Shown here: in pieces, positions 2 through 60,937 of the stretch
Layout: the number at the start of each line of letters is the position of its first letter
Numbering within the stretch: the first letter of the stretch is position 1
Assembly (NCBI GenBank): GCA_964521065.1
Contig: CAZFPQ010000002.1
Location: 21,909 to 85,908 of the forward strand
Source of the DNA: an uncultured Bacteroidia bacterium
GTDB taxonomy: Bacteria > Bacteroidota > Bacteroidia > J057
Direction of reading: 5' to 3'
Length of the DNA: 64,000 nt
Program-made: the position numbers and the translations under genes
Notes under the pieces: generated by a model
Seen by the model: the letters and a program-made list of their open reading frames with translations, nothing else
Database searches by the model: none
Told to the model about the DNA's origin: nothing

Positions 2-523
2 TACTACAACATCGAATCAGAATTGGGCAACAGAGGAGTACTTAGGGCAGCTCCCGATTCAGCGCTAATAAACACCAACTTCTCTAGTCCAATAGCTGAT
101 ACGGATAAGCTATGGAAAGCCATCCACCAATGGGGGAATGTTTATCGTTTTGAAAGCAAAGTGCCAGTTAGAGACTACCTATGGGGCAAAACGACCTCTG
201 GAGAAGTCCTTTGGGGGCCAAGCCAAGCAAATGATACTCGCTGGGGATTGGAGCGTGTTTCTGTAACGGAAATAAACTCAATCGAAGAAAGCCCATACAC
301 CATATACCCCAACCCAGCTACCAGTTCCGTATGGATTGATCAAATCAAACACTTTCATACCCTTCGCTTGCTAGATGTGGCCGGACGCGAGCTCTTGCGT
401 CAGACACTGCCAGTGGGGACCTCCCAATGGAAATTGTCTGTCGAATCCTTGCCATCTGGCATGTACCACCTACAACTCATAGGTAGAGAATCCCTAGTTA
501 GCAATAAATTGATGATTGAGTAA
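2..523 (+). CDS. 3' end of a secreted protein with a T9SS (Por) type-A C-terminal sorting domain; the 5' part lies outside the window
   Basis: The reading frame is open back to base 2; the track start at 23 is a TTG inside an open frame. The last ~75 aa (YTIYPNPATSSVWIDQ...LPSGMYHLQLIGRESLVSNKLMIE) show the 'YPNP' entry and 'G.Y.....' pattern typical of Bacteroidota T9SS CTDs. The same pattern occurs in the ORFs ending at 40943 and 43385. Confidence 0.6.
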   Translation, partial: YYNIESELGNRGVLRAAPDSALINTNFSSPIADTDKLWKAIHQWGNVYRFESKVPVRDYLWGKTTSGEVLWGPSQANDTRWGLERVSVTEINSIEESPYTIYPNPATSSVWIDQIKHFHTLRLLDVAGRELLRQTLPVGTSQWKLSVESLPSGMYHLQLIGRESLVSNKLMIE

Positions 524-8109: not shown

Positions 8110-8152
8110 GCCTCCCATAATCCTTGTCCCTAACCCCTATGTCCCTACTACT

Positions 8153-11100
8153 ATGAGCAATCGAATCTTTCTTTACCTTTTTGGGATTATGATCCTTTTG
8201 GCCTGTAACCAGAGGGAATCAAGCTCTCAACTGGCCTTAGGTTTTGAACACCCCCCCTTTGAGTATCGCCCCGAAACCTGGTTCCACTTCATTGGAAATA
8301 ACATTAGCAAGGAAGGAATCACTCAGGACCTAGAAGCGATTAAGGAAGCAGGTTTGCAGGGTATTCATCTGTTTAACAAATCGGGACAGGCTTTTCCTAA
8401 GGTAGAGCAAATTGAAATCCTTTCCCCCGAATGGGAAGAAATGATCCGTCACGCAGCCAATGAGTGTGAGCGTTTAGGCTTAAAATTCACCATGCAAAAC
8501 TGCCCAGGATGGTCCATGACTGGTGGCCCTTGGGTACCTGCACAGGAGGCGCAGCGAGAACTGGTAGAAACGGTTTATCATTTCAAAGGAGGTCAGGCTC
8601 TCTCAACTCATCTAGAGATGGAGCCTAAGTATGAGGAGACAGATTATAATTATCAAGATGTTGCACTGCTCGCATTTCCAAGCCCAAACGGGGATGCCTC
8701 TCCCCTGCTTAGCCCCATTAGCACTTCCTCCAACAATTCGGCTGTACCTTGGGAGAGAATTATCAATCCAGTCAAACGGGTAGAAATGGTGAACCGGAAG
8801 CTTCCCGCAGACTGGAAGCCTTATTCGGAAATAGGCATCACTCCTGTGGGTAACGAAAGGACCTGGGTACGCATCACCTTTGACGAACCTCTATGCCTAC
8901 GTTCTCTCATTTTCCCACCCATCCGCTTCATGCTACCAGGAACAGAGTATCCGGTCATCGATGTACGGATCAAAGTCCAAGCAAAGATCGATGGCCAACT
9001 TGCTGAGGTAGCGGAAATAAAAATCCCAGATGGGAATTGGAACGATCGACAGCTGGACCTGACCCTTGCTGTTCCAGAGGCCACTTCAAATGAGTTTGTT
9101 CTAAGCTTTCTTGGTGACCATGTACTCAATCCTGGATACATATACCTAAGCTCAAAACCCCGCTTGCATAACCATGAAGCCATGGCGGCGAGGGCGTTTA
9201 GAAGATTACAAAGGTCAGTTGATGTTGAGTTTGGGCAAGAAAGCATGGTAGGCCTTTCGCAAATTGTAGATCTATCTGGCAAGATGGATCAAGAGGGGAA
9301 TCTGAATTGGGATATGCCGGAGGGTGAGTGGACATTGGTACGATTTGGGCACGTAAACATGCGGCGCACCAATAAGCCCGCCGTTCCTGAAGCTACAGGC
9401 TGGGAAGCCAGCAAACTCGATAAAATTTCCATTGAAAATCACCTAAGAAAGGGAATGATCGGCAACTTGATGCGAGAGGATGGTCCCATAGCTGGAGGTA
9501 AGTTGGATGGCCTGCTGATTGATAGTTGGGAAAGCTTTATCCCCACCTGGAGCATGCACTCAGAAGACATGTTCCGCGAATTTGAAGCCAGACGTGGATA
9601 TCCGCTGAAGTCATTTTTACCCGCAACTATGGGCTACATCGTGGAGAGTCCTGAGGTCACGACCAAATTCCTTCGAGACCTCAGGCATACCATGGATGAA
9701 CTATACGTTGAGAACTTTTTCAGTCATTTCGCTACCGTTGCCCATGAAATGGGAGCAGAAGTTTACACCGAAGGTGCAGGGGGTGAAGTACTGCCCATCG
9801 ATCCCATGCGCTATTATGGAGTTGCAGACATTCCCATGACTGAGTTTTGGTACCCAGGACCTCCCTCTGCCCAAAATGAGTACGCAAAACCCATCTTTCA
9901 TGCTGCTTCGGCCATGCATGTATACAACAAACCCAAACTGGCGGCAGAGGCATGTACCCAAATCGGAGTAAAATGGAACGAACATCCCTATTCGGTCAAA
10001 GGGCTAATTGACTACAATTTAACCAAAGGAGTAAACCACCTCGTTTTCCACACCTTCACCCATACACCCCAAAATGATGTTTATCCAGGTTCTAGCTTTG
10101 GTGGGAATATCGGGTTTCCACTAGTCAGGCAGCAGACATGGTGGCAGCATATGTCGGCATGGACGGATTACCTCACTCGAAATCAGTTCATGCTGCAGCA
10201 AGGGGAATACGTAGCAGATGTACTTAGGTACTATGGAGACCATTATGAGCGTCCACCCTTTGACTTGGATTTTTTTCCGAAAGGGTATCGTTTCGATTAT
10301 CTCAATGCGGAAATCCTGCACAACAAACTACGTGTACATAATGGCCTGATCCATGTCGAAGAGGCAGGCAGTTATAGGGTAATCGATTTGGGAGACTCAA
10401 GAGAATTGATGCTTTCAACGATCAAACGCTTAAAAGAACTGGTCATAGCAGGAGCAGTGGTGCTAGGGGACAAACCCGTAGACTCGCCCAGTTTGATGGA
10501 TGATGATGATGACCTCAAGGCATTGAAAAAAATTTCCGATGAGCTTTGGGGCGATGGCCACAGTGGGGTAAAAGCTGTAGGCAGAGGACGTGTTTATTGG
10601 GGGAAGAATATTGAAGAAGTCCTTGACTTAGAAGGGGTCAGTCCAGATTTTCATTCCCCTGAGGAACTTCAAATCAATTGGATACATCGAGAAACTGAGA
10701 ACGAGGATATCTACTTTATTTCCTCTAGAAACAAACATACGTTAAGGGCTTCTGTAGGATTTAGAATTCAGGATGCTGCGCCTGAAATCTGGGATGCTTT
10801 TACGGGGAAGAGGCAGAAAGCGCTGGTTTGGGATAGAGATGAAACCCATACCCAAGTAGCGATTACGCTGGATCCAAAAGGGAGTACAATCGTGGTATTT
10901 CCCAAAGGAAGTAAAGGTAGCACCTGTAGCGAGATTCAATGGAATGGACAAACCATCTTACAAGCGAAAGCTGATTGGACCCCTGATACAAGTCATGACT
11001 CATTGGTCCATATCGAATACTACGGCGAGGATTTGGTGGCTTCGAAGAGCGGGACCTATACTTTCCATTACGGGTATGGAAACAAGGACATTGAAGTTGA

Positions 11101-11584
11101 AACCGAGAAAACGCCCATTACTGAAATTTGGGACATTGCCTTTGATCAAGCTTGGGACACTCCAGAACTCACTTCTACAGCCCAGTTAGCGTCACTGACT
11201 GAGTTTGATGACGAGTCCATCAAGTATTTCTCTGGTACGGCCACTTATTCTAGCAGCTTTTCCTTTCAAAAGCAGCCTGGACAAGTCTCAGTCGATCTAG
11301 GTGATGTCCACAACATTGCCAGCCTTTGGTGCAATGGAAAACCAGTGGGTACCCGTTGGGCTCCACCTTATTCATTTGCTGTCACAGAATATGTAAAAGA
11401 CGGCGAAAACGAGATTGTGGTGAAAGTCACCAATACCTGGCGTAACCAGTTGATCTACGATCAAGCAAAAAAAGCTGAGGACAAAAGAACCTGGACCACC
11501 GGGTGGAAGGGTTCCCAAAATGAGCCTCTAGACATGAGTGGCCTGGTTGGTCCCGTTTTCATCAACACTTGCATAACAAAATAG
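8153..11584 (+). CDS. GH106-like large exo-glycosidase (alpha-L-rhamnosidase family), lipoprotein
   Basis: The start is moved to the ATG at 8153 (MSNRIFLYLFGIMILLACNQ, lipobox). The N-terminal block FEHPPFEYRPETWFHFIGNNISKEGITQDLEAIKEAGLQGIHLFN and the C-terminal block IKYFSGTATYSSSF...LGDVHNIASLWCNGKPVG...VKVTNTWRNQL match the architecture I associate with GH106/'glycosyl hydrolase' giants (BT0986 type). Family call not verified by HMM. Confidence 0.5.
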   Translation: MSNRIFLYLFGIMILLACNQRESSSQLALGFEHPPFEYRPETWFHFIGNNISKEGITQDLEAIKEAGLQGIHLFNKSGQAFPKVEQIEILSPEWEEMIRHAANECERLGLKFTMQNCPGWSMTGGPWVPAQEAQRELVETVYHFKGGQALSTHLEMEPKYEETDYNYQDVALLAFPSPNGDASPLLSPISTSSNNSAVPWERIINPVKRVEMVNRKLPADWKPYSEIGITPVGNERTWVRITFDEPLCLRSLIFPPIRFMLPGTEYPVIDVRIKVQAKIDGQLAEVAEIKIPDGNWNDRQLDLTLAVPEATSNEFVLSFLGDHVLNPGYIYLSSKPRLHNHEAMAARAFRRLQRSVDVEFGQESMVGLSQIVDLSGKMDQEGNLNWDMPEGEWTLVRFGHVNMRRTNKPAVPEATGWEASKLDKISIENHLRKGMIGNLMREDGPIAGGKLDGLLIDSWESFIPTWSMHSEDMFREFEARRGYPLKSFLPATMGYIVESPEVTTKFLRDLRHTMDELYVENFFSHFATVAHEMGAEVYTEGAGGEVLPIDPMRYYGVADIPMTEFWYPGPPSAQNEYAKPIFHAASAMHVYNKPKLAAEACTQIGVKWNEHPYSVKGLIDYNLTKGVNHLVFHTFTHTPQNDVYPGSSFGGNIGFPLVRQQTWWQHMSAWTDYLTRNQFMLQQGEYVADVLRYYGDHYERPPFDLDFFPKGYRFDYLNAEILHNKLRVHNGLIHVEEAGSYRVIDLGDSRELMLSTIKRLKELVIAGAVVLGDKPVDSPSLMDDDDDLKALKKISDELWGDGHSGVKAVGRGRVYWGKNIEEVLDLEGVSPDFHSPEELQINWIHRETENEDIYFISSRNKHTLRASVGFRIQDAAPEIWDAFTGKRQKALVWDRDETHTQVAITLDPKGSTIVVFPKGSKGSTCSEIQWNGQTILQAKADWTPDTSHDSLVHIEYYGEDLVASKSGTYTFHYGYGNKDIEVETEKTPITEIWDIAFDQAWDTPELTSTAQLASLTEFDDESIKYFSGTATYSSSFSFQKQPGQVSVDLGDVHNIASLWCNGKPVGTRWAPPYSFAVTEYVKDGENEIVVKVTNTWRNQLIYDQAKKAEDKRTWTTGWKGSQNEPLDMSGLVGPVFINTCITK

Positions 11585-11588
11585 AAAA

Positions 11589-14500
11589 ATGAAAACAGCA
11601 ACTTCTGCCCTCATTTTTCCCCAAAGCATTTGGCCTAAGACTTTACCACTCCTAGATGCTCATATCGTTGGGTTCATTCTCATCTGGGTAATCTTGGGTA
11701 TGAGCTGCTCCTCCTCTCCCCTATTCATCTCCGACCTTCAATGCGAATACCGCAGAGATCCGCTAGGCATTGACAACACCTCACCACGGCTGAGTTGGAA
11801 ACTCTTGGACCCAAATAAGGAACGAGGGCAGAAGCAAACTGCCTATCAAGTTCTAGTAGCAAGTAGCCGGGAAAAACTTAACGAGGATGAAGCTGATCTA
11901 TGGAACTCCGAAAAGGTCAATTCAGCACAATCAGTCAATGTGGTCTACCAAGGAACTAAGCTTAATTCAGGCCAACCATGCCACTGGAAGGTAAGGATTT
12001 GGGATATGGATGGAGGTGTTTCAGTTTGGAGCGCCCCAGCGAAGTTCTCCATTGGCCTCCTTTACCCTGAGGATTGGAAAGGGGAATGGATACAAAAAGC
12101 GGATCAAGATCGAAAAGACCATAACTGGTATCGCAAGAATTTCATACTGAAAAAAGAGCCCGAATCTGCAATGGTTTATGTCGCTTCATTTGGTTATCAC
12201 GAGCTATATGTGAATGGACAAAAAGTTGGGAAGGGAGTGATGAATCCGGTACAATCCCATCTAAAAAAGCGACTACCCTATTTAAGCTACGATATCCATG
12301 AGTATCTAAAGGAAGGGGACAATGTAATTGGTATCTGGCATGCAGCGGGATGGGCCAGATGGGGAAGGGTAAAGGAATACCACAAACCGCCATTTGTTTT
12401 CAAGGCTCAAGCAGAGATCCAACAGGAGGGAAACACAGTTACTATCTCGACAGATGAAACCTGGAAATGTAAAAGGAGCTATAGTGCTTATTGGGGAGAT
12501 TGGGACATCCTAGACTTTGGCGGTGAGATCATCGACGAACGTCTAAGAGAAAATGACTGGAACACAGCCAGCTATGATGATTCCGACTGGGATCATGCGA
12601 GAGTTTTTGATGAATCAAGGACCGGAAGCATAGACATCAGTAAAATTGACCTAGGTCCAAAAGGGGCCAGACGGGTTGATAATTCTTCGCAGGATATCCC
12701 TACTAACCCCATCACTGCTAAGTTGAGTGCGCAAAGGGTCGAACTCCAAGTCAAGTACCAAGAAGTCCATCCCATTTCGGTTACCCCACAACACAATGGC
12801 ACTTATCTCATTGACATGGGGACGAATTATACGGGCCACTTTTCCATGGAGCTACACCATGGACGCGAAGGTGATACAGTTACTTTTGAAATCGCCGACC
12901 ACCAGGAGCTAACTTCCTCCTGGGAACAACGAAGTAAATACATCTTTGATAAGACAGGTACAGGCCGGTTTGCCAACCGGTTCAATGTAGCCGGTGGGCG
13001 ATGGGTCACGGTGTATGGATTGAATTACAAACCTGATTTACAGGACATCAAAGGCTACGTCATCACCAATGACCGTAAGCAGATCAGCAGCTTTGAAAGC
13101 TCCAGCAAACTGCTCAACCAGATCTATCAAACCAACCTAAATACTTCTATTGCCAACACCATTGACGGCATTTTGGTGGATTGCCCACACCGAGAACGGC
13201 GGGGATGGGGAGAGGTCACCGTAGCCTGTATGTATGGAGATCTCTTGCCCAATTTTGAGAGCGGGGCCTTTGTAAGCCAGTATGCCCAGTTCCTCGCCGA
13301 TGCACAAGCAGAGGACGGAAAAATGAAAGCCGTTGTCAATGGCGATGATTTTCAATTCCTCATGTGGATGGCAAATAGTCCCATCACCATTTGGGAAACC
13401 TATCGGAGCTTTGGCGATAAAAAACTACTCAAAGATCACTACCCAAGTATGGTGAAATGGATGGAGTGGATGAAGCGAAATTCAGGCTATGACTTAGGCC
13501 AGGGACTGATCATTGGGACACAAGGCAGCCTTGAGTTTCCGGGACTGGGGGATTGGTGCACGCCAAGGGGCAACTTCTGGTCAGCCAGTAATTCTCCAGA
13601 ATCTGCCCACTTCAACAACTGCGTTTATGCCTTTATGCTGGAATGTGCCAGGAAAATCGCCATTGAGCTCGGGAAAACGGGAGATGCAGATACTTACGCA
13701 AAGCGCCTATCTGTCCAGCGAAAAGCCACACACACACAATCTTATGATCCCATCACGGGTAAGTACCTTGATGGCCGACAGGTCAATCAGGCTTTTGCCT
13801 TGCTGACAGGCGTTTCGCCTGAGGCGGAAAGGGAAAAAGTAATGGCCCATCTTGTGGATAACGTGCTCTACAAGTTTCCCTACTACGATACAGGCAGTTC
13901 TGGTCAAGCGTTGTACACCCGGTTCTTCACGGAGCATGCAGAGCGAATGGACTTGATTTATGAACTTCTCCAGGATAGGAGTCACCCTAGCTATGGGTAC
14001 TTTATTGATCAGGGAAAAACCGTATGGCCAGAGCGATGGTCGGCCGTAGGCACCAGTCAGATACACACCTGCTACACGGGAATTGGGGGCTATTTCATCA
14101 AAGGCTTTGGCGGAATTCGACCTGACCCAGTGCACCCAGGCATGCAACAATTCATCATCAAGCCCTCTCCTGTTGGTGACCTTACTTTTGCCAATACCAC
14201 TCATCGATCCATGTACGGCGACATCGTGGTTAATTGGACAAAAGACCAAGGGTCAGCCTCATTTCACATCGAGATACCCGTCAATACTACCGCCCAGGTT
14301 TTCATTCCAGCCTTGCAAGCACAGGATGTGAGTGAGAGCGGCCAACTTGCTGATCGAGCAGACGGCATTCAATACCTAGGCAGGGAAAAAAGCGAAGCAG
14401 TCGGAAACTATGTGATCTATCAACTGGGAGCTGGAAGCTATGATTTTGGCGTAAACCAATTGCCCCAAACCAGCTACCCAGACCCAATAGGCAAGGCGAA

Positions 14501-14888
14501 AAACCTGGCTCTCATTGGAAGGATGAATGCTTCCTCAATGCACATCGTTACCGAAAAGCTACCTGGTTTTGAAGCCTTCAAAGCCAATGACCAGAGCCTG
14601 CAAACCGCATGGCAAGCCAATAGCAAGGGTCATGAATGGCTAGAAATAGAATGGGTAAAACCCACAACCTTTAATCAGCTGATTATCAAAGAGAAAACAA
14701 AATCAATCAAGCGCTTCAAGGTTCAATACCTACGTCATAACCAATGGGTTGATTTGGCAGAAGGAAATGAGATAGGAAAAAATCTTTCCCTTTCAGTAAA
14801 CACAGTCACCACGCATAAATGCAGACTCCTGATGGAGGAATCAAGCAACAAGCCTCAAATATTAGAATGGGAAATTTTCAAAGAGTAA
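11589..14888 (+). CDS. GH78 alpha-L-rhamnosidase with C-terminal F5/8 type C (discoidin/CBM32-like) domain
   Basis: Canonical GH78 N-terminus DLQCEYRRDPLGIDNTSPRLSWKL...QTAYQVLVASS...WKVRIWD. The (alpha/alpha)6 block is VDCPHRERRGWGEVT. The C-terminal ~150 aa (AFKANDQSLQTAWQANSKGHEWLEIEW...) is discoidin-like. The gene starts 4 nt after the preceding CDS. Confidence 0.9.
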   Translation: MKTATSALIFPQSIWPKTLPLLDAHIVGFILIWVILGMSCSSSPLFISDLQCEYRRDPLGIDNTSPRLSWKLLDPNKERGQKQTAYQVLVASSREKLNEDEADLWNSEKVNSAQSVNVVYQGTKLNSGQPCHWKVRIWDMDGGVSVWSAPAKFSIGLLYPEDWKGEWIQKADQDRKDHNWYRKNFILKKEPESAMVYVASFGYHELYVNGQKVGKGVMNPVQSHLKKRLPYLSYDIHEYLKEGDNVIGIWHAAGWARWGRVKEYHKPPFVFKAQAEIQQEGNTVTISTDETWKCKRSYSAYWGDWDILDFGGEIIDERLRENDWNTASYDDSDWDHARVFDESRTGSIDISKIDLGPKGARRVDNSSQDIPTNPITAKLSAQRVELQVKYQEVHPISVTPQHNGTYLIDMGTNYTGHFSMELHHGREGDTVTFEIADHQELTSSWEQRSKYIFDKTGTGRFANRFNVAGGRWVTVYGLNYKPDLQDIKGYVITNDRKQISSFESSSKLLNQIYQTNLNTSIANTIDGILVDCPHRERRGWGEVTVACMYGDLLPNFESGAFVSQYAQFLADAQAEDGKMKAVVNGDDFQFLMWMANSPITIWETYRSFGDKKLLKDHYPSMVKWMEWMKRNSGYDLGQGLIIGTQGSLEFPGLGDWCTPRGNFWSASNSPESAHFNNCVYAFMLECARKIAIELGKTGDADTYAKRLSVQRKATHTQSYDPITGKYLDGRQVNQAFALLTGVSPEAEREKVMAHLVDNVLYKFPYYDTGSSGQALYTRFFTEHAERMDLIYELLQDRSHPSYGYFIDQGKTVWPERWSAVGTSQIHTCYTGIGGYFIKGFGGIRPDPVHPGMQQFIIKPSPVGDLTFANTTHRSMYGDIVVNWTKDQGSASFHIEIPVNTTAQVFIPALQAQDVSESGQLADRADGIQYLGREKSEAVGNYVIYQLGAGSYDFGVNQLPQTSYPDPIGKAKNLALIGRMNASSMHIVTEKLPGFEAFKANDQSLQTAWQANSKGHEWLEIEWVKPTTFNQLIIKEKTKSIKRFKVQYLRHNQWVDLAEGNEIGKNLSLSVNTVTTHKCRLLMEESSNKPQILEWEIFKE

Positions 14889-14949: not shown

Positions 14950-17900
14950 ATGCTTAATTCCTCCAACGCATCAAAAAAAGCCCGATCCTCAAAGTGGCTT
15001 ACCCTCCTGATGACACTGTCATCTTTACTCATCTGCTCATTGGCATCATCAGCTAACCATACAAGCGAGCAAGAACTAATTTATTTAAATGGAGAGCGGC
15101 TAGAGCTAGCCAAACAACAGATTAAAGCCCAAAATCCTTTTTATGTAGAGGCGTATGACAAGCTCATTACCCTCGCTATGAGGGAATTAGAAAGAGAGAT
15201 TGATCCAGTCACCCATAAGACCATTCTACCGGCCAGTGGGGACATTCATGACTACCATACCCTAGGGTCATATTACTGGCCAGATACCCGTAAAGAAGAC
15301 GGCTTACCGTGGATTTACAAAGACGGAGAGTTCAACCCTATCAACCGAGGCCCTGAAACTGATTGGACACGTCTGAGAGAAATGTTTACCTCCTTACACA
15401 CACTGAATTTGGCCTACTATTTTTCAGGAGAGGAGGTCTACCTACATAAGGCCCACCATATTGTCCGAGTTTGGTTTATTGAAGAAAAGACTAAGGTAAA
15501 TCCTAACGTCAATTACGGCAAAGCCATACCGGGTAAGGTTTCGGGAACCAACTTCGCCATCATTGATTGGACGGATATAGGCAAGGTCATTACGACCATT
15601 CAACTACTGGATGAGGGGGGCATGTGGAGTGCTCGTGATAAGAGCATCATGAATAAGTGGCTGGAAGACTATTACACCTGGCTGACCGAAAGTGAATTCG
15701 GCATTCGTGAGAGCACCAGAACCAATAACCACGGAACAAACTATGACTATCAGCTGATAGGTCTCATGATCTATCTTGGAAAGTTAAGCGAAGCTGAAGT
15801 CAAACTAGAGGAAGTCAAGGAAACACGCATAGCATCACAGATTAATCCAGATGGCAGTCAACCCCGCGAACTGGCTCGTACAAAATCCGTCAACTATACG
15901 GTCAACAACTTATGGGCGCTGGCGCGTATGGCGGATCTGGCTTATCGCTTCACCGAGATAGACCTGTGGCATTACCAAAGTGAAGACGGAGTCAGCTTGA
16001 AAAAGGCCTTTGAATTTGTGATTCCCTTTCTGACTGGAAAAAAAACCTGGGAGTGGAAACAAATCACAGGAGGAGGAGCCGACAGCCAATTGGTCAATAT
16101 GGCTTTACCCATGCTTCACAGAAGCGAGTTGATGCTGGGCGTAAACATCCTCCCCATAGGTTTCCTTGGACATGAAAAATTTACTCCTCAAGAGATCCTG
16201 ATGTATGCCCCCGAAACCAAAGGCTCAGACCCGAACTGGGGAAATGCCCGATGGATCTGGCAAGCAGAAGAGGGACCTGCTAATACCTGGGTCGCGTTTA
16301 GGAAAACCTTTGACCTGGAAGAATTACCCATGTCTGCTATGGCCAAAATTGCCGTTGATACCAAATATTGGCTTTGGGTAAATGGCGAGAGGGTCTTGTT
16401 TGAAGGCGGACTTGCCAGAGGGGCTGGGCCTGGTACAACTTATTTTGACCTGGTAGATATTGCATCCTTTTTAACAGAAGGACAAAACACCATCGCTGTC
16501 CTCGTCTGGTATTGGGGCAGAACCAGAAAAGTACATGATGACAGTGGATGGGGAGGCCTGATTGTCCATGCGGATTTGGGAGAAAAAGCCCTCATCACGG
16601 ACAGTAGCTGGAAGCTAACCTTGCACCCAGCCTATGATCCGGCTAGTGGAGGGGGCGGAAAAAGCGCCAATCGGGTCAATGCTTACAATGTCTATTTTGA
16701 CGGTCGTAAAGCCTTGGGGGATTGGTCTGATCATGCTTGGTATCTACCGGGCTATGATGACAGCAGCTGGGGTCTCCCGACGGAAAAAGGATGTGCGAAC
16801 GCTAATCCTTGGGGTAGATTAGTAGAAAGGAGCATTCCGCGATGGAATGATCGAGGACTAGCTGATTATGGCTCCCTTAAACTAGATAATCAGGCGATCG
16901 AACTTCCTTTCTTCAACATGTCCGATTCTGTAAGGGAGATTCATGCTTTCCTACCCTTCAACCAGCAAGTCACACCTTTTTTGAAGGCAAACTGCGAAGC
17001 CGGGCAGATCCTCACCATAGACACCGACAATCCTTTCAATTTACTTGAGGCAAAGTATACAACCCGAAAGGGCGTCCAGTCGTTCGAATCCTATTCCTGG
17101 TTTAACGGACACGAAGTGATCTACCATATCCCGCCGGGGGTAGAAATCCTTGAGCTGAAGTATCGTTGGACGGGTCTAGGAGAAATGACTGGATCATTTG
17201 AAGTTAGCGACTCCTTTTATACGCGCTTATGGTGGATGGCGAGAAATACCTTGTACATCTGTGCCAGGGATGGTTTTATGGATTGTCCAGACCGGGAACG
17301 AGGCCTTTGGATCGGGGATGTGGGCGATCAGACAGGAGCCGTTTTTTACACCTTGGATGAAGCGGGTCGATTATTGTTGAAAAAGGCAATAGATAACACC
17401 ATCGCCTACAGAGATGGAGACACCTTACAGGGTTTAGCCCCTGGTTTTGGAGCTTATCGTGGCAAAAGTAGTGAATTGACTTGCCAGAGCCTCCAGTTCA
17501 TTGACCACGTAGTTTGGCAATATTATTATCATACCGGAGACACAGTGACCCTAGCTCATGCCTATCCGGCCATTTTTCGCTACCTGAACCTATGGAAAAT
17601 GATGCCCGATGGACTGCCAGAACCTCGCCAAGGTTACGCCAACTGGGTGGATTGGGGAGCAGATCCTGATCCCGAACCTGTGAATGTTTGCTGGTATTAT
17701 ATCGCGTTAAAAGCGGCAAAGAACATGGCGCTCACCTTGCAAGTGTATGAGGATACGACTTGGTATGAAGATCGAATCGAAAGCATAGAGAGGAACTTTG
17801 CGAAAAAATATTGGAGGGGAACCCATTATGGATCAGCAGGAAAGCCAAGAGAAGAACGGACGAGTTCCCTGGCTCTCATAAGCGGATTGGCCAACGAGGG

Positions 17901-18510
17901 TTTCTACAAAATACTGGTTGATAGCACCTTGTTTCCAGTAAGGAAATCCAGTCCGCATATGGAGTGGCTCGCCGAGGAAGCTCTTATGGTAGCCGGGCAA
18001 TATGACAAAGGCCTGCTGCGCATGAAGCAGCGTTATATGGACCAGGTTACAAGCGAAAACCTAAGCACCCTATACGAACGCTTTGATGTCAACAGACGAG
18101 GGACATACAACCATGCCTGGAATGCCCCGAATTATGTTCTGTCTAGGTATATAGCTGGAATCAAACCTAGCGCCGTGGCCTGGGCCAGCTTTGAGGTAAA
18201 GCCCCAATTGGTACATCTCACCTATCTCAAACAAACAGTCCCTTCGGTGAAAGGAGACATCACCATAGAAATCAAGCAGGAAGCACACAGCTTTGCCATC
18301 GAGGTGAATGTACCTGAGCAAACCACTGCAACCGTCTACCTTCCCAAATCTCCAACAGGCATTTCAGAAGCCTGGGTGAATGGGCAATTAGCCTGGGAGA
18401 ATGAAACATTCAATGATGAAGTAGAAGGCGTAAAACTCCATGATGTAGACCTGCAGTGGCTAAGCTTCGAGGTGAGGCCGGGCCAGTGGCACTTCATCGC
18501 AAAAAGGTAA
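14950..18510 (+). CDS. Two-module protein: N-terminal PL5-like 'alginate lyase' toroid domain fused to a GH78-like alpha-L-rhamnosidase-related module
   Basis: A signal peptide is present. The N-terminal module (about 15070-16180) has GDIHDYHTLGSYYWPD...DGLPWIYKDGEFNP and RTNNHGTNYDYQ (compare the PL5 AlgL NNHSYW block). The C-terminal module (from about 16240) has ARWIWQAEEG...FRKTFDL...AKIAVDTKYWLWVNGERV and the (alpha/alpha)6 block MDCPDRERGLWIGDVGDQ, typical of Bac_rhamnosid6H. Confidence 0.65.
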   Translation: MLNSSNASKKARSSKWLTLLMTLSSLLICSLASSANHTSEQELIYLNGERLELAKQQIKAQNPFYVEAYDKLITLAMRELEREIDPVTHKTILPASGDIHDYHTLGSYYWPDTRKEDGLPWIYKDGEFNPINRGPETDWTRLREMFTSLHTLNLAYYFSGEEVYLHKAHHIVRVWFIEEKTKVNPNVNYGKAIPGKVSGTNFAIIDWTDIGKVITTIQLLDEGGMWSARDKSIMNKWLEDYYTWLTESEFGIRESTRTNNHGTNYDYQLIGLMIYLGKLSEAEVKLEEVKETRIASQINPDGSQPRELARTKSVNYTVNNLWALARMADLAYRFTEIDLWHYQSEDGVSLKKAFEFVIPFLTGKKTWEWKQITGGGADSQLVNMALPMLHRSELMLGVNILPIGFLGHEKFTPQEILMYAPETKGSDPNWGNARWIWQAEEGPANTWVAFRKTFDLEELPMSAMAKIAVDTKYWLWVNGERVLFEGGLARGAGPGTTYFDLVDIASFLTEGQNTIAVLVWYWGRTRKVHDDSGWGGLIVHADLGEKALITDSSWKLTLHPAYDPASGGGGKSANRVNAYNVYFDGRKALGDWSDHAWYLPGYDDSSWGLPTEKGCANANPWGRLVERSIPRWNDRGLADYGSLKLDNQAIELPFFNMSDSVREIHAFLPFNQQVTPFLKANCEAGQILTIDTDNPFNLLEAKYTTRKGVQSFESYSWFNGHEVIYHIPPGVEILELKYRWTGLGEMTGSFEVSDSFYTRLWWMARNTLYICARDGFMDCPDRERGLWIGDVGDQTGAVFYTLDEAGRLLLKKAIDNTIAYRDGDTLQGLAPGFGAYRGKSSELTCQSLQFIDHVVWQYYYHTGDTVTLAHAYPAIFRYLNLWKMMPDGLPEPRQGYANWVDWGADPDPEPVNVCWYYIALKAAKNMALTLQVYEDTTWYEDRIESIERNFAKKYWRGTHYGSAGKPREERTSSLALISGLANEGFYKILVDSTLFPVRKSSPHMEWLAEEALMVAGQYDKGLLRMKQRYMDQVTSENLSTLYERFDVNRRGTYNHAWNAPNYVLSRYIAGIKPSAVAWASFEVKPQLVHLTYLKQTVPSVKGDITIEIKQEAHSFAIEVNVPEQTTATVYLPKSPTGISEAWVNGQLAWENETFNDEVEGVKLHDVDLQWLSFEVRPGQWHFIAKR

Positions 18511-18575: not shown

Positions 18576-19607
18576 ATGAATCAAGCAATGACAAAAAAAG
18601 TAAACGAGAATCGCATAAAATGGGGAATCCTAGGTGTGGGAGATGTATGTGAGGTAAAAAGTGCTCCTGCCATGCAGATCATCAAGAACTCAGGGGTGGT
18701 GGCAGTGATGCGTAGGAATGGAGCGAAAGCAAAAGATTATGCAAAAAGGCACCAAGTGCCGAAATGGTATGACCGCGCCGAAGACCTTATCCAGGACCCT
18801 GAGGTCAACGCTATTTATATCGCCACCCCTCCAAATGCCCATTCAGAACTCACAATTAAGGCAGCTTCAGCCGGAAAGCCTATCTATGTAGAAAAGCCAA
18901 TGGCCAAGTCATTCGCTGAGTGCAAACAAATGATGGCTGCATGTAAGCAAGCCCATGTCCCCCTCTATGTAGCCTATTACCGCAGGATGCTCCCAAACTT
19001 TTTGAAGTTCAAAGAGCTCGTCGAGTCAGGGATTATTGGCGAAATTCGACTGGTTAAAATTGAACTCTACAAAACCGCAGAGCCTGACATAGTTGCGAAC
19101 AAGGAAGCAAACCAGGCTTCAAACTGGAGGGTGAATCCAGAGATTTCTGGAGGAGGATATTTCTTTGACCTAGCCTCTCATCAGTTGGATTTTTTGGACT
19201 TTGTATTTGGACCTGTCCAATCCGTTGGAGGACATGCAGCCAATCAGGCAGGCCTATATCCAGCTGCGGACGTGGTAGTGGGGTATTTTACGTTTGAGAA
19301 TAATATTCAGGGAGTCGGGAGTTGGTGTTTTACCGCAGATGAAACAGCAGAAAAGGATGAGTTGACAGTCATAGGGAGCAAAGGGACATTGAGCACCTCG
19401 TTCTTTGGAAAGCCCGAGATCTCATTGGCACTCTCTGGGGGTAAGGAGAACCAAAAGCTTAGTTTTCAACTACCCAAGCACATTCAGCAACCCCTGATCC
19501 AGACAGTAGTGGATGATCTGTTGGGTAAGGGCACCTGTCCCAGTACCGGCGCTACTGCGATCCGCACAAATTGGGTCATAGAGGAAATGACCAATAGGTT
19601 CGCCTAG
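18576..19607 (+). CDS. Gfo/Idh/MocA-family NAD(P)-dependent oxidoreductase, no signal peptide
   Basis: The N-terminal Rossmann block is IKWGILGVGDVCEVKSAPAM, followed by AIYIATPPNAHSELTIKAASAGKPIYVEKPMA, the typical EKP motif of the family. The CDS ends in tandem in-frame TAG TAG (19605-19610). Confidence 0.8.
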   Translation: MNQAMTKKVNENRIKWGILGVGDVCEVKSAPAMQIIKNSGVVAVMRRNGAKAKDYAKRHQVPKWYDRAEDLIQDPEVNAIYIATPPNAHSELTIKAASAGKPIYVEKPMAKSFAECKQMMAACKQAHVPLYVAYYRRMLPNFLKFKELVESGIIGEIRLVKIELYKTAEPDIVANKEANQASNWRVNPEISGGGYFFDLASHQLDFLDFVFGPVQSVGGHAANQAGLYPAADVVVGYFTFENNIQGVGSWCFTADETAEKDELTVIGSKGTLSTSFFGKPEISLALSGGKENQKLSFQLPKHIQQPLIQTVVDDLLGKGTCPSTGATAIRTNWVIEEMTNRFA

Positions 19608-19669: not shown

Positions 19670-21526
19670 ATGAGCTCCTATCATGCCCTGCTTACATTGG
19701 CCTCCGGGCTACTTCTTATCAGCACAATTAGCGGTTGCAAAGAGACAGCCCCACTCCCACCGCCCAACATTCTCTGGATCGTAAGTGAAGACAACTCCCC
19801 TTTCCTGGGAGCCTATGGCGACAGCTTTGCCACTACCCCCAACCTTGACAAGTTGGCGGCTGAAGGGGTGCTATACGAACATGCTTTTGCCTCGGCCCCG
19901 GTCTGCGCGCCTTCTCGCAATACCCTCATTACCGGCGTTTATCCTCCTTCGATGGGTACCCAGCACATGCGGAGCAAGTATGCTTTGCCTGCCTTTATAC
20001 GATTCTTCCCCACTTACCTGAGAGAAGCTGGCTACTACACGACCAACAATTTCAAGAAAGATTACAACGTAGCCGTAGATCAGTCTGAACAGGCCTGGGA
20101 CGAGTCTAGCAAGGAGGCTACTTATCAAAATCGCCGACCCGGCCAACCTTTCTTTGCCGTATTCAACCATACAGTTTCTCACGAAAAAAGTATTCATACG
20201 TCGATCCCATCAGTCAACCTTCGCCATGATCCCGAGCGAGTGCCTATTCCTCCTTATCACCCACCTACCGAGGAGATGAAGCACGACTGGGCCCAGTACT
20301 ACGATAAGGTAGAGGACATGGACAGGCAAGCGGGAGACCTGCTGGCGCAATTGGAAGCTGATGGCTTAGCAGACAATACAATCGTATTTTACTACAGCGA
20401 CCACGGAGGCATACTAGGACGTAGCAAGCGTTTTCTTTTTGAGTCTGGGTTACGCATTCCCCTGATCGTGCGGGTACCAGAGAGGTATAAACACCTGATT
20501 GACCTACCCCCTGGCAGCAAAAGCAATCGCCTTGTAAGCTTTATTGACTTTGCTCCTACGGTACTGAGTCTGGCGGGGATCGAGATTCCCGATTACATGC
20601 AGGGCAATGCCTTTATGGGCGAGTCAGCCATCGAAGACCTCGCATATGCTTTTGGATTTCGAGGGAGAATGGATGAAGTGTATGACCTAGGCCGCACTGC
20701 CAGGGACGAACGCTTCCGCTACGTCCGCAATTTCATGCCGCATCGTATCTACGGCCAATACCTGAGCTACCTGTGGCGGGCCCCTTCCATGCAATCGTGG
20801 GACAGTGCCTTTCAGGCCGGGGGGCTAACCGAGGTCCAATCTGCCTTCTTTCAGCCCAAACCCACCGAAGAACTCTATGACGTACGAGTCGATCCCCATA
20901 ACACCCAGAACCTCGCCGGAAACCCTGCTTATGCAGAAGACCTGAGGCGAATGCGTCAGGCGACCTTTGATTGGATGGCCACCATTCGTGATGCGGGACT
21001 GATGCCAGAGGCAGAGATGATCCACCGGACGGGCGACAGCAGTACCTATGAATACGTCCACAGCGACGCCTATCCCTTTGATCGGATTCTAGAGACTGCT
21101 GACTGGGCTACCCAACGTGATCCAGCTTATGTGCCAGCCTTGCTAGACCGTAAGGATGATCCCAATGAAGCCGTGCGATACTGGGTCGCTACAGGGTTGA
21201 CAATCCTGAGTAAAGAGAAGCCTGAAGTGAGCGCTGTCTTGGCTCAGCTATGCATGGATCAATCTCCTAATGTAGCTATCGCTGCTGCAGAGGGACTGTT
21301 GAACACAGGAGAGAATGAGTTGGGACTTTCGGTCCTGGAGCGGTACCTCGACCACCCAGAAGAGAAAGTACGCGTCCATGCCCTAAATATCATCCGGGTC
21401 ATTGGAGAGGCCGCGCGGCCTCTCTTTCCCAAATTGCGAAAGCTGGTAGAGACAGGCGAGGACGGTTTCCAAGTTTATGATGTGCAGGCAGCCAAGGGAG
21501 TACTTAAACGGATGGAGGGAAGATAA
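19670..21526 (+). CDS. S1-family sulfatase with C-terminal HEAT-repeat extension, lipoprotein
   Basis: A lipobox is present (LLLISTISGCKE). Sulfatase blocks are PNILWIVSEDNSP, the CAPSRNTLITGVY signature, and YYSDHGG. The last ~130 aa carry three HEAT-like units (DDPNEAVRYWVATGL / DQSPNVAIAAAEGLL / HPEEKVRVHALNII). Confidence 0.85.
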   Translation: MSSYHALLTLASGLLLISTISGCKETAPLPPPNILWIVSEDNSPFLGAYGDSFATTPNLDKLAAEGVLYEHAFASAPVCAPSRNTLITGVYPPSMGTQHMRSKYALPAFIRFFPTYLREAGYYTTNNFKKDYNVAVDQSEQAWDESSKEATYQNRRPGQPFFAVFNHTVSHEKSIHTSIPSVNLRHDPERVPIPPYHPPTEEMKHDWAQYYDKVEDMDRQAGDLLAQLEADGLADNTIVFYYSDHGGILGRSKRFLFESGLRIPLIVRVPERYKHLIDLPPGSKSNRLVSFIDFAPTVLSLAGIEIPDYMQGNAFMGESAIEDLAYAFGFRGRMDEVYDLGRTARDERFRYVRNFMPHRIYGQYLSYLWRAPSMQSWDSAFQAGGLTEVQSAFFQPKPTEELYDVRVDPHNTQNLAGNPAYAEDLRRMRQATFDWMATIRDAGLMPEAEMIHRTGDSSTYEYVHSDAYPFDRILETADWATQRDPAYVPALLDRKDDPNEAVRYWVATGLTILSKEKPEVSAVLAQLCMDQSPNVAIAAAEGLLNTGENELGLSVLERYLDHPEEKVRVHALNIIRVIGEAARPLFPKLRKLVETGEDGFQVYDVQAAKGVLKRMEGR

Positions 21527-21644
21527 CTCAGTGTGCTCAATCAGGTATAACTCAGACTCGCAACAAGCGGTGGTGTCCTATGAGGATCAAAATGCACAGA
21601 CACTTAACCCAATGCTTTGGGTTTGGACCACGCTACTAAACAGG

Positions 21645-23024
21645 ATGAATGACATGAAACCTTTACTTTCAATCCTTTTCATACTCGCCTGTATGATCTT
21701 TTCTTGTTCCCAAACAGAACAAGAGGTTGAATACTTCGCAAACAATGCCTTTGGCAACCCCATTACAGGCAATGCTGGGGAATATTATCAGGGGGTAACC
21801 TATGTCGCCTTCCAAGGAGAAAAGGAAGACCCTTACGTAGCAGCTTATGACCATGAAGAGGGCAAATGGCTTGGTCCCTTTAAGGCTGGCACAAGCCTAC
21901 TGGGCAAAACCCCTGGGAAGAAGATTGATAACCACGGAAAACCCTCTCTAGTCGTAGACAGTGAAGGCTATATTCACCTGGTATTCGGAGGACATGGCGG
22001 AACCAGAGACCTAGGCGAAAATACCCTAGGCAATTACAATGATGGGAAACAAATCCACGTAAAGACCCGCAACCCAGAGGATATTAGTTCTTGGGAGGTG
22101 GTAGATAACCTCCCGCCATTCGCTACCTACAGTCAGTTTGTCAAAATGGACAATGGCGATATTTATTTGTTCTATCGTCATGGCGCGCACCGCAGCGATT
22201 GGGTGTATCAGGTGTCAAAAGATGATTGTCGTACCTTCTCGCCTAAAGTGTCCTTTCTTAAAGCAAAACCTGCCGCTCCGATCCCTGCTAGTGATAACGT
22301 TTGGGACTCGTGGTACATCAATCTCAGGAGAGGCAGAGGCAGTGATATCCTTGTATCCTACAACTACCATGTATGCCATAACATGAGTCCTGGTGTACAC
22401 GCAGGCAGACGCCACAATTGCTACTTCATGCGGTTTGACACCGATCAAAACCAATGGCACAACATAAAGGGGGAGACGCTACAGCTTCCTATTACAAAAG
22501 CCTATGCGGATACGATGACATTGGCTATAAATACCGAAGACAGATGGAACCATCTCGGACGGGTAGGACTTACCAAAGACGGCTATCCCATTATCAATTG
22601 GTATGAAGGGAAAAATGATGGTTCCAGACATGGCGGCCCCAAACAACTGGTACAGTATCACTGGTCCGGTGAAAAATGGATGGGAGGTAGGACGAATGTA
22701 CCCTTAGAGGCTAGAGGGGAGGTACAAGCCAAATCTCGGGACTCGATTAGTTATTTATTGGGTTCTACAGAGGCGCAATCAGGGGAAGTTAGCTGGTGGG
22801 AAAGTGTCAATGGGGGAGAAACCTTTAGCCAAGGAGAGGTGCTGGTAAGTGCTGAAGGAGGAACGTTTAGCCTGTCGCATTTCGTCAGAAATGCCCATCC
22901 GGATGCCCGCATACTCGCCACCCAGAAAATAGCCGGAACCGACTATTCCAAAATTTACCTTTTGGGAAACCAGGGAGCAATCTCTCGATCAGGGTCAGAA
23001 GCCCATACCCAGCATGTTGAGTAG
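21645..23024 (+). CDS. BNR_4-type beta-propeller protein, lipoprotein, function unknown
   Basis: The start is moved to the ATG at 21645 (MNDMKPLLSILFILACMIFSCSQ, lipobox). The track start at 21477 would overlap the upstream sulfatase by 50 nt with no signal peptide. The block KIDNHGKPSLVVDSEGYIHLVFGGHGG is analogous to DRHNHISMGICEGDGTIHLTFDHHAH in ORF 41148, and I associate it with Pfam BNR_4 (PF15892). Confidence 0.5.
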   Translation: MNDMKPLLSILFILACMIFSCSQTEQEVEYFANNAFGNPITGNAGEYYQGVTYVAFQGEKEDPYVAAYDHEEGKWLGPFKAGTSLLGKTPGKKIDNHGKPSLVVDSEGYIHLVFGGHGGTRDLGENTLGNYNDGKQIHVKTRNPEDISSWEVVDNLPPFATYSQFVKMDNGDIYLFYRHGAHRSDWVYQVSKDDCRTFSPKVSFLKAKPAAPIPASDNVWDSWYINLRRGRGSDILVSYNYHVCHNMSPGVHAGRRHNCYFMRFDTDQNQWHNIKGETLQLPITKAYADTMTLAINTEDRWNHLGRVGLTKDGYPIINWYEGKNDGSRHGGPKQLVQYHWSGEKWMGGRTNVPLEARGEVQAKSRDSISYLLGSTEAQSGEVSWWESVNGGETFSQGEVLVSAEGGTFSLSHFVRNAHPDARILATQKIAGTDYSKIYLLGNQGAISRSGSEAHTQHVE

Positions 23025-55000: not shown

Positions 55001-55588
55001 CCTGAGAAGAGAAAAGCCACTGTGGTTGAGCACATAAAGTCTCGCGGACTGGCTTGCAGTGTGTACGGTGCCCAATATTTATTAGAAGCCCTATACAAAG
55101 CAGGAGAAGCCAAATATGCTGAAGAGCTCATGACTGCTACCCATGACCGGAGTTGGTACAACATGATCAAGGTGGGATCTACCATTACCCTTGAAGCCTG
55201 GGACATGAAGTATAAAGTCAATGCTGATTGGAATCATGCTTGGGGGGCAGCTCCTGCCAACATAATCCCTAGATTTCTCTGGGGCATTCAGCCCAAGACT
55301 CCTGGTTATGGAATCGCCAGCATCAAGCCCCAAATGGGGACCTTGACTCGCAGTTCTATCAAGGTTCCCACGATCAAGGGGCCCATTTTGGGATCATACC
55401 GATACATCAATGCCAGGCGGCAGACCTTCACCATAGATATCCCTGCCAACATGGTCGCTGAATTTGAACTTCCTTCAGCTTCAGGTCAGGTGATCAAACT
55501 TAATGGGGAAAAAGTCAATTCAGCCTTTGGGACTATTCGCCTGACACCTGGCCAGAATAAAATCGAGTTGGTGGTAAACTCTTTTTAA
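52070..55588 (+). CDS. Fusion protein: N-terminal S1 sulfatase plus C-terminal GH78-like alpha-L-rhamnosidase module
   Basis: A signal peptide is present. The sulfatase half (to about 53450) has [14 protein letters not shown], the signature [27 protein letters not shown] and [16 protein letters not shown]. The GH78 half has PEFSWTL...[11 protein letters not shown]...[10 protein letters not shown] and the (alpha/alpha)6 block [20 protein letters not shown]. It is one uninterrupted 1172-codon ORF. Confidence 0.8.
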
Positions 55589-57311: not shown

Positions 57312-57509
57312 ACCTTATGACTATGAACTACTACCAAGACTCTTACCACGACTCTAGCTGAGTGGCACTCTGGGTCAGTAATCAAGGATGACTGACCGCA
57401 TAAGTTAAATCATTTAGGGATTACAACTCACTTGGAATGTTCGGCCTGGGCAGTCCTAGGGTCCCTATATCCTTTACGAAGGCTTCCTTCTATTATTAAT
57501 AAAAACAAT

Positions 57510-60929: not shown

Positions 60930-60937
60930 AAGCTCCA

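Follow-up and report, generated by a model that had tools for sequence, protein, structure and literature searches.

In a 64-kb window of DNA from an uncultured marine Bacteroidia bacterium (the whole stretch analysed, 64,000 nucleotides of contig CAZFPQ010000002.1), one gene encodes a protein in which sequence and structure-model comparisons recognise a polysaccharide lyase of family PL38 followed by a RhaB-type rhamnosidase of family GH78. Its open reading frame (ORF) runs uninterrupted for 1186 amino acids, from an ATG start to a stop codon (Table 1). Ulvan alternates rhamnose-3-sulfate (Rha3S) with glucuronic acid (GlcA), iduronic acid (IdoA) or xylose (Xyl). On balance we favour the view that the gene specifies one exported, probably periplasmic, protein with two predicted catalytic modules acting on ulvan oligosaccharides, and that it arose by the merger of adjacent genes.

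Origin and rarity of the fusion gene

The fusion is real. Two metagenome contigs from separate assemblies, with DNA 99.98% and 100% identical to that of the window, encode an identical protein, which rules out a chimeric assembly or a frameshift as the source of the ORF. A word-indexed search of 5.8 billion protein clusters returned both Pfam domains together in the query alone. In an exhaustive HMMER search of 1.84 billion representatives, every match among those listed covers one half only; a relative with both halves at no less than 35% identity would score far above the 351-bit list cutoff of that search. A local rescan of 249 retrieved proteins again placed both domains in the query alone. 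The PL38-GH78 architecture is unique in both very large protein searches, in keeping with the initial annotation, which knew of no characterised enzyme of that design. It is less exotic than that annotation had supposed, since the merged genes are neighbours in another bacterium and other fusions of the lyase domain exist.

That bacterium is the gammaproteobacterium Neiella litorisoli HB171785 (locus L004), in which a PL38-like gene of 444 residues is followed, after a spacer of 470 bp and in the same orientation, by a GH78-like gene of 785 residues with its own signal peptide. The Neiella lyase is the closest lyase homolog among the genomes searched (68% identity) and carries the unusual Lys191 described below, and its GH78 neighbour matches the corresponding half of the query at E=6e-196. 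Both halves are orthologous to those of the query and stand in the same order; the split pair is preceded by two GH106 genes, as the fusion is by one. The Neiella pair differs in consisting of two genes, each with its own signal peptide, in a host outside the Bacteroidota. At the query junction (...FTPQEILMYAP-ETKGSDP-NWGNARWIWQ...) the lyase C-terminus is followed by seven linker residues and then by the N-terminus of a mature rhamnosidase. Because the Neiella genes are adjacent, and because the query junction joins a lyase end to a mature rhamnosidase start, we read the fusion gene as a lineage-specific, in-frame merger of two neighbouring genes, PL38 then GH78, from which the spacer and the downstream signal peptide were deleted. 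Such a merger is a 'Rosetta stone' indication that the lyase and the rhamnosidase work together.

Elsewhere the lyase domain is found fused to GH2, sulfatase, PF07470 (GH88/105-like), GH95-like, beta-helix and S-layer homology (SLH) domains and to type IX secretion system (T9SS) tails, and it can also be duplicated in tandem. The fusions to GH88/105-like, GH2 and sulfatase partners suggest that, in a cascade of exo-acting steps, this domain generates or processes the uronate ends.

Several of these relatives merit description in their own right. Tandem PL38-like domains share one polypeptide in proteins P0054, P0057, P0085, P0159, P0191, P0208 and P0223, the Paenibacillus members of which also bear SLH cell-wall anchors. 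P0096 is a triple fusion of 1578 residues, PL38-like, GH2 and GH88-like, from a cluster of 101 member sequences, many of them on long contigs. Another fused homolog, P0097, has housekeeping genes only as contig neighbours. In a Haloferula metagenome-assembled genome (L010, 9611..11188), a PL38-like gene is present as two consecutive ORFs of 354 and 171 residues, through a frameshift, pseudogene formation or a sequencing error.

Family assignment and active sites of the two halves

The Pfam values of the fusion protein are far beyond chance. PF05426 (Alginate_lyase) covers residues 87-367 with its full model (2-275/275; E=3.6e-66; 223.9 bits against a cutoff of 22.2). The GH78 six-hairpin domain PF17389 covers residues 746-984 with part of its model, positions 2-240 of 339 (E=2.8e-23; 83.2 bits against 24.5), and the GH78 C-terminal domain PF17390 covers residues 1070-1137 (E=9.5e-12; 45 bits against 22.1). 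With all three above their cutoffs, the domain mapping that the initial annotation had called for agrees with its division of the protein into a toroid lyase and a GH78-like remainder. The motifs from which it worked lie at residues 101-112 (DYHTLGSYYWPD), 117-130 (DGLPWIYKDGEFNP) and 257-268 (RTNNHGTNYDYQ), and at residues 435-442 (WIWQAEEG) and 777-794 (MDCPDRERGLWIGDVGDQ).

Both sequence and model comparisons assign the lyase half to CAZy family PL38 and not to PL5, the family suggested by the initial annotation. When the N-terminal 450 residues were compared with PDB sequences using phmmer, only two proteins matched, both of them PL38: the uncharacterised BACOVA_01668 of Bacteroides ovatus (3NFV/3NNB, E=5.3e-65) and the BoPL38 series from B. 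ovatus CP926 (8BDQ/9FH*/9FI*) at about 1e-47 (E=4.8e-47). A profile built from the query subfamily lifted these scores to 3e-93 for 3NFV and to about 1e-66 to 2.3e-66 for BoPL38. No PL5 chain appeared at E<=0.01 in the phmmer search; in the profile search against the PDB, PL5 was represented by Smlt1473 alone (E=0.0095-0.05, 18 bits over ~100 residues), and AlgL and A1-III were absent at E<=10. AlphaFold2 (AF2) models were made for the two halves separately. The model of residues 1-437 has a mean local confidence (pLDDT) of 83.3 and a predicted template modelling score (pTM) of 0.82, with a lone low-confidence helix at residues 9-34 in the signal region and pLDDT <50 from residue 424 onward, in the linker region. 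Foldseek gave it target-normalised template modelling (TM) scores of 0.81-0.88 to PL38 structures (E=1e-18 to 1e-22; 0.88 and E=1.6e-21 for 3NNB, 0.81-0.85 for BoPL38), against 0.57-0.65 to PL5 structures (E=1e-4 to 1e-2). The toroid and the NNH...R...Y motif are common to PL38 and PL5, and PF05426 spans both families. Together these comparisons indicate a distant, clan-level relation to PL5 and not membership, and we dropped the PL5 label (E about 0.01, against E=5.3e-65 for PL38). The best-scoring homolog of the domain is ORF3334 of Paenibacillus algicola (61% identity; 63% for the related P0057), which was assigned to CAZy PL38, by annotation, in the genome paper (PMC9227215).

The active site can be read against a structural and quantum mechanics/molecular mechanics study of BoPL38 (bioRxiv 10.1101/2024.12.11.627697). 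In that enzyme, syn-elimination has Tyr298 as its base and anti-elimination has His243; Tyr298 is also the catalytic acid. The substrate is distorted by Arg292, which also pairs with Asp108 in a salt bridge that roofs the tunnel. Glu236 tunes His243, Tyr91 modulates Tyr298, and the sugar in subsite -1 is bound by His297. Correct positioning of the loop and substrate requires both Asn242 and Gln173, and the Q173N and Q173L variants lost both lyase and epimerase activity. Tyr91, Asp108, Glu236, Asn242, His243, Arg292 and Tyr298 align with query Tyr108, Asp125, Glu254, Asn260, His261, Arg310 and Tyr316. The NNH...Y block that the initial annotation had placed at the catalytic position is accordingly there, with its Asn, His, Arg and Tyr all present. 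Among 27 aligned domains of multi-domain homologs, six of these seven core residues are invariant and Glu236 is kept in 23. Among 99 genome-derived PL38 domains, Asp108, Asn242, His243, Arg292 and Tyr298 occur in every one, and Tyr91 and Glu236 in 97 (BoPL38 numbering). Because the core residues are kept in 97-99 of the 99, their conservation argues for a working lyase domain and not a decayed binding module. By analogy with BoPL38, an enzyme with both a Tyr and a His base could in principle act on either C5 epimer, GlcA or IdoA, and ulvan would call for both.

The toroid fold and the catalytic set of the query are those of BoPL38 and BACOVA_01668. BoPL38, however, degrades alginate, whereas the query domain sits in an ulvan context, fused to GH78, and departs from BoPL38 in three substitutions: Gln173 to Lys, His297 to Asn and Tyr104 to Trp. 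The first of these, Lys191 of the query, falls in subsite +1, at a position where 96/99 of the genome-derived domains have Gln. Lys is found there in the query, its Neiella ortholog, a Flammeovirga PL38-GH2 fusion, a Catenovulum sulfatase-PL38 fusion, the first of two Paenibacillus domains and both domains of P0085. Gln at this position is no formal requirement for PL38, but since Q173N and Q173L abolish BoPL38 activity and Gln is otherwise near-universal, Lys191 marks a small, divergent PL38 subclade with an altered +1 subsite.

The rest of the protein is GH78-like, as first annotated, and sequence and model alike place it with RhaB. Its C-terminal 756 residues match Bacillus RhaB (2OKX, E=9e-35 among PDB sequences) across the N-terminal sandwich and the catalytic domain, with RhaB residues 7-203 aligned to query residues 432-637. 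SaRha78A and BT1001 match more weakly, and Pfam finds a weak Glyco_hydro_2_N-like match in the beta-sandwich region. The AF2 model of this half (pLDDT 87.9) has an all-beta N-terminal part, and its top 11 Foldseek matches are all GH78 (2OKX, E=3e-41; 6I60, query-normalised TM 0.79; then 3W5M, 6GSZ, 3CIH and others). We take the catalytic carboxylates of RhaB to be Asp567, Glu572, Asp579 and Glu841, equivalent to SaRha78A Glu636 and Glu895 (Cui et al. 2007; Fujimoto et al. 2013). Query Asp778, Glu783 and Asp790 (nt 17281-17319) and Glu1043 (nt 18076-18078) align with the four RhaB residues and are kept in 24/24 standalone homologs checked. Judged by these residues, both halves of the protein look catalytically competent.

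The module has the same domain order as RhaB of Bacillus sp. GL1 (beta-sandwiches, (alpha/alpha)6 domain, C-terminal sandwich), but the two are ~18-25% identical and the query module is ~200 residues shorter. Unlike RhaB, it belongs to a marine clade of ~785-residue proteins from ulvan-type loci, lacks a separate signal peptide and is joined to a lyase. As a standalone protein of that size, 55-74% identical, it is widespread in marine Flavobacteriia, Cytophagia, Planctomycetota, Verrucomicrobiota and Kiritimatiellota. The closest standalone homolog (74%) lies in a locus with PL28 ulvan lyase, GH78, GH106 and GH2 genes. On the same contig, a Y1 transposase gene (PF01797) is found directly downstream (L003 6101..6652), inside an otherwise syntenic ulvan-type gene array.

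Gene content of the ulvan utilisation locus

From its genes we identify the window as an ulvan utilisation locus (Table 1). Pfam recognises four GH78 genes (including a sulfatase-GH78 fusion), two GH106 genes, one GH2 gene and four other sulfatase genes. Rhamnose uptake and catabolism are served by a full set of genes, comprising RhaT, an isomerase-like gene, a kinase, an aldolase/dehydrogenase fusion and an FMN-dependent dehydrogenase, and the SusC/D genes, a sigma/anti-sigma pair and T9SS tails mark a Bacteroidota polysaccharide utilisation locus. The Pfam scan covered the 31 main ORFs among 35 of at least 150 residues, the other four being overlapping or antisense.

The initial annotation had proposed that the fusion would suit a repeat of rhamnose and uronic acid, of ulvan type or gum-arabic-cap type. 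The first of these is borne out by the context, with its PL40 homolog, rhamnosidases and sulfatases; an activity of the second type would more plausibly reside in the separate PL42/GH145-like genes. Uly1040, to which the PL40-type protein is related, is a characterised PL40 ulvan lyase (PMC12915356). Homologs of the window's PL40-type protein adjoin PL38-like genes in the related loci L011 (two copies), L025, L046 and L053. The protein that enters the window at its left edge is probably a secreted PL28 ulvan lyase. In the 80 related genome loci compared, rhamnosidases, sulfatases and PL40 homologs accompany mainly the nearest relatives of the query, in Polaribacter, Catenovulum, Labilibacter, Leeuwenhoekiella, Namhaeicola, Maribacter and Neolewinella; PL38 members further removed, from soil Acidobacteriota and similar groups, have other neighbours.

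GH145/BNR_4 proteins are beta-propellers, and BT0263 (PL27) is an L-Rha-alpha-1,4-GlcA lyase. The two PL42/GH145-like genes of the window could act on Rha-GlcA ends, as putative lyases or hydrolases. They had been candidates for PL40 ulvan lyases, and were rejected as such once PDB searches placed them with PL42 and GH145 and the PL40 homolog proved to be another gene. FoRham1 (PL42), also an L-Rha-alpha-1,4-GlcA lyase, acts on the rhamnose-uronic acid linkage with the chemistry first proposed for the fusion protein, but its fold is unrelated to the N-domain of the query, with no homology between them, and it has its own counterparts in these separate proteins.

A precedent for a two-activity ulvan enzyme exists in Formosa agariphila P36, an S1_25 sulfatase-GH78 protein whose modules act in consecutive steps and which was the first multimodular enzyme described in ulvan degradation (PMC8511951). 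The window holds a gene of the same architecture. In P36 the partner of the rhamnosidase is a sulfatase and not a lyase, and its GH78 module is of the Rha78A type, with an Ig_Rha78A_N domain, whereas that of the query is of the RhaB type.

Two further genes deserve mention. Homologs of the GFO/IDH/MocA oxidoreductase gene recur near PL38-like genes in loci L009, L018, L019, L020, L022, L046, L049 and L073, a pattern that may signal a functional association. The gene for the 605-residue T9SS protein follows a SusC-like gene (36130..39093) for which no SusD partner can be recognised; its product could be a novel surface glycan-binding protein.

Table 1. Positions in the window of the fusion gene, its parts and other genes of the locus
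Feature	Position	Strand	Basis
Fused PL38-type lyase and RhaB-type GH78 rhamnosidase, complete gene	14950..18510	+	ORF listing, Pfam, identical protein on two other assemblies
Predicted N-terminal export signal, ~aa 1-35: basic KKARSSK, hydrophobic WLTLLMTLSSLLI, Cys29, ASSA	14950..15054	+	Read from sequence
PL38-type (alpha/alpha) toroid lyase domain, ~aa 41-421	15070..16212	+	PF05426, PDB sequence matches, AF2/Foldseek
Lys191, at the BoPL38 Gln173 position; rare active-site substitution	15520..15522	+	Alignments
Glu254...Asn260-His261 in RESTRTNNHG block (BoPL38 Glu236, Asn242, His243)	15709..15732	+	Alignment
Arg310...Asn315-Tyr316, RTKSVNY (BoPL38 Arg292, His297, Tyr298)	15877..15897	+	Alignment; position 297 variable, Asn here
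Fusion linker ETKGSDP, aa 422-428, between lyase end (…ILMYAP) and mature rhamnosidase start (NWGNARWIWQ…)	16213..16233	+	Comparison with split Neiella genes, junction DNA and translation
N-terminal beta-sandwich domains of RhaB-type GH78 module, ~aa 429-752	16234..17205	+	2OKX alignment, AF2
GH78 (alpha/alpha)6 catalytic domain, ~aa 755-1068	17212..18153	+	PF17389, RhaB alignment, Foldseek
GH78 C-terminal beta-sandwich domain, ~aa 1070-1186	18157..18507	+	PF17390 E=9.5e-12, AF2 strands
C-terminus of longer protein: ulvan-lyase (PLH30/PL28-type) beta-trefoil and T9SS sorting tail; frame open to left window edge	2..523	+
PL40-type ulvan lyase homolog, 815 aa, without Pfam/NCBIfam annotation	5662..8109	+	PDB 9VTK Uly1040, E=1.1e-79
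GH106 rhamnosidase, directly upstream of fusion region, co-oriented	8096..11584	+	Pfam
Rha78A-type GH78, immediately upstream of fusion gene, co-oriented	11589..14888	+	Pfam
GFO/IDH/MocA oxidoreductase, 65 bp downstream of fusion gene	18576..19607	+
Second BNR_4 gene, PL42/GH145-related	21477..23024	+	Pfam
605-aa protein, sole recognisable feature a C-terminal T9SS sorting domain	39126..40943	+
PL42/GH145-like BNR_4 with CBM96 and T9SS tail	41148..43385	+	Pfam; 7ESK (FoRham1) E=1.4e-41, GH145 5MUK E=1e-27
463-aa ORF overlapping the end of the FMN-dependent dehydrogenase gene by ~44 bp	50636..52027	+	No match in Pfam, NCBIfam, PDB sequences
Sulfatase-GH78 fusion, 1172 aa, P36 architecture	52070..55588	+	Pfam
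SusC/SusD pair	57432-62509		Pfam

Proposed role and competing explanations

We propose that the fusion protein works on ulvan oligosaccharides after their import. One signal peptide serves the whole protein and a T9SS tail is absent, features that would place it in the periplasm, where it would meet oligosaccharides brought into the cell. If BoPL38 is a guide, Arg310 and Asn260 would position and neutralise a 4-linked uronate at subsite +1, H5 would be abstracted by Tyr316 (syn, from GlcA) or His261 (anti, from IdoA), and Tyr316 would protonate the leaving O4 to yield a 4,5-unsaturated uronate. The GH78 module would be an inverting alpha-L-rhamnosidase, with Glu783 as general acid and Glu1043 as general base, and would take off a non-reducing terminal L-rhamnose, presumably desulfated. 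Because Rha3S alternates in ulvan with uronate or Xyl, the two modules may catalyse nearby steps in the breakdown of imported oligosaccharides, together with the sulfatases and other rhamnosidases of the locus. The comparisons show the gene structure, the family membership and conserved catalytic residues of both halves, the uniqueness of the fusion, the split ortholog pair and the ulvan context, whereas the exact substrate and bond cut by the lyase half, the cellular location and any kinetic benefit of the fusion are inferences; candidate bonds could be Rha3S-uronate or GlcA-GlcA, or the lyase could carry out an exo- or dehydratase-like reaction at a chain end.

Several observations weigh against this proposal. 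An endo-lyase would leave one chain with a Rha3S reducing end and another that starts with an unsaturated uronate, and neither would be a GH78 substrate without intervening GH105 and sulfatase steps. GH88/GH105 (PF07470) is found in none of the 31 main ORFs of the window, although it encodes four or five candidate lyases; an unsaturated uronyl hydrolase may lie outside it or belong to an unrecognised family. The locus already has PL28-, PL40- and PL42-like lyases beside the PL38 module. A RhaB-type GH78 gene lies beside the lyase gene in 1/65 long related loci, so that functional coupling rests on two lineages. With Gln173, which BoPL38 needs for activity, replaced by Lys and His297 by Asn, the activity or specificity of the query lyase could differ strongly from that of its characterised relatives. 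In the literature searched, every characterised PL38 acts on alginate (Aly38A, BoPL38), beta-1,4-glucuronan (CUL-I, TpPL38A) or glycosaminoglycans (Amuc_0771, RiPL38), with glucuronan also used as a known PL38 substrate for Amuc_0778, and none acts on ulvan. Nor did the literature searched connect a PL38 or 'alginate lyase family' enzyme with the degradation of ulvan, or contain an enzymatic report on a member of the query's immediate subclade.

The PL38 module could instead be a glucuronan-type lyase that cuts GlcA-beta-1,4-GlcA, in runs within ulvan or in a separate Ulva cell-wall glucuronan, and not Rha3S-alpha-1,4-uronate, with the GH78 module merely sharing its compartment. We regard this as unlikely, while giving it some weight. 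Glucuronan and runs of GlcA-GlcA are present in Ulva walls, PL38 enzymes are known to act on beta-1,4-glucuronan, and the three other lyase types of the locus could handle the Rha-uronate bond. Fusion or adjacency to a rhamnosidase, however, and the rhamnosidases and sulfatases of the nearest relatives, point to rhamnose-containing substrates, and the substitutions at positions 173 and 297 argue against an unchanged PL38 specificity.

It is also conceivable, and in our estimation improbable, that the lyase is exolytic at the non-reducing end. It would then free terminal rhamnose from Rha-alpha-1,4-GlcA/IdoA, in the manner of PL27 and PL42, or eliminate water from a terminal uronate, in the manner of Formosa P29_PDnc, and would complement the GH78 module on oligosaccharides that the hydrolase cannot handle. 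Two modules acting on the same Rha-uronate ends would give a reason for the fusion, and the PL38-like domain is elsewhere joined to GH88/105-like hydrolases, which consume unsaturated uronates. A dehydratase step is used in ulvan pathways, where P29_PDnc had earlier been reported as an ulvan lyase (PMC8511951). Against such a reaction, the tunnel-roof pair of BoPL38 (Arg292-Asp108) is kept as Arg310 and Asp125, which suggests an endo-type tunnel, and two PL42/GH145-like genes are already at hand in the locus for the exo reaction on Rha-GlcA. P29_PDnc, the ulvan-oligosaccharide dehydratase, which we take to be the founder of PL37, was considered as a homolog of the N-domain and dropped: its candidate catalytic residues (Asp, Glu, Arg and Lys at 248-303) are unlike NNH...R...Y and homology is not established, so that we keep it as a possible functional analogy.

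That one half is catalytically dead and serves the other as a binding or targeting module, an alternative already raised in the initial annotation, seems to us very improbable. Modular carbohydrate-active enzymes sometimes recruit inactivated catalytic domains, and the query has Lys in place of a Gln whose mutation abolishes both activities of BoPL38. The other catalytic and structural residues of both halves are nevertheless intact, and invariant or nearly so over hundreds of millions of years of divergence, which tells against a mere binding role. Relatives that stand alone or have other fusion partners, among them the unfused Neiella gene, also carry Lys191, and because it is common to them it predates the fusion and is under selection. 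We give hardly any credence to the fusion being an artefact or a recent non-functional read-through, produced by sequencing or assembly error or by a deletion that made a pseudogene-like chimera, for although it is known from a single lineage and a singleton protein cluster, all three sources appearing to sample one population, the same junction was read by two different assemblers, is in frame with the second signal peptide precisely removed and a short hydrophilic linker left, and lies in 3.5 kb with no stops or frameshifts and with the conserved motifs of both halves intact.

A bolder reading can be offered as a possibility and not as an expectation. The Lys191 subclade of PL38 (the query, its Neiella, Catenovulum and Flammeovirga relatives and the first Paenibacillus domain) might be an unrecognised class of ulvan-active lyases, the first in PL38 to attack sulfated ulvan oligosaccharides at the Rha3S-alpha-1,4-GlcA/IdoA bond. 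In that case the change to Lys would have provided a binding residue for the rhamnose 3-sulfate or for the uronate, and in the query one polypeptide would alternate elimination and hydrolysis along the Rha-uronate repeat.

The first interpretation of this gene is thus partly supported: its family label changes from PL5 to PL38, its link to ulvan is strengthened, and its claim of a new bifunctional enzyme is plausible. What the window provides is a new domain architecture, built from two known families, together with a credible pointer to a novel specificity within PL38. Neither the fold, the mechanism nor the kind of system is new. Ulvan is a major, under-used polysaccharide of green seaweeds, and some steps of its breakdown are still without an assigned enzyme. 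The fusion, and the separate neighbouring genes of another bacterium, suggest a seaweed-related role for this group of PL38 lyases. The fusion, the Neiella split pair and the repeated sulfatase, GH2 and GH88/105-like fusions in rhamnose- and sulfate-rich loci amount to 'Rosetta stone' evidence that would place a marine subclade of PL38 in the breakdown of sulfated polysaccharides of rhamnose and uronic acid. If the protein is active, it would bring a new specificity to PL38 and a compact two-activity enzyme for making ulvan oligosaccharides or rhamnose.

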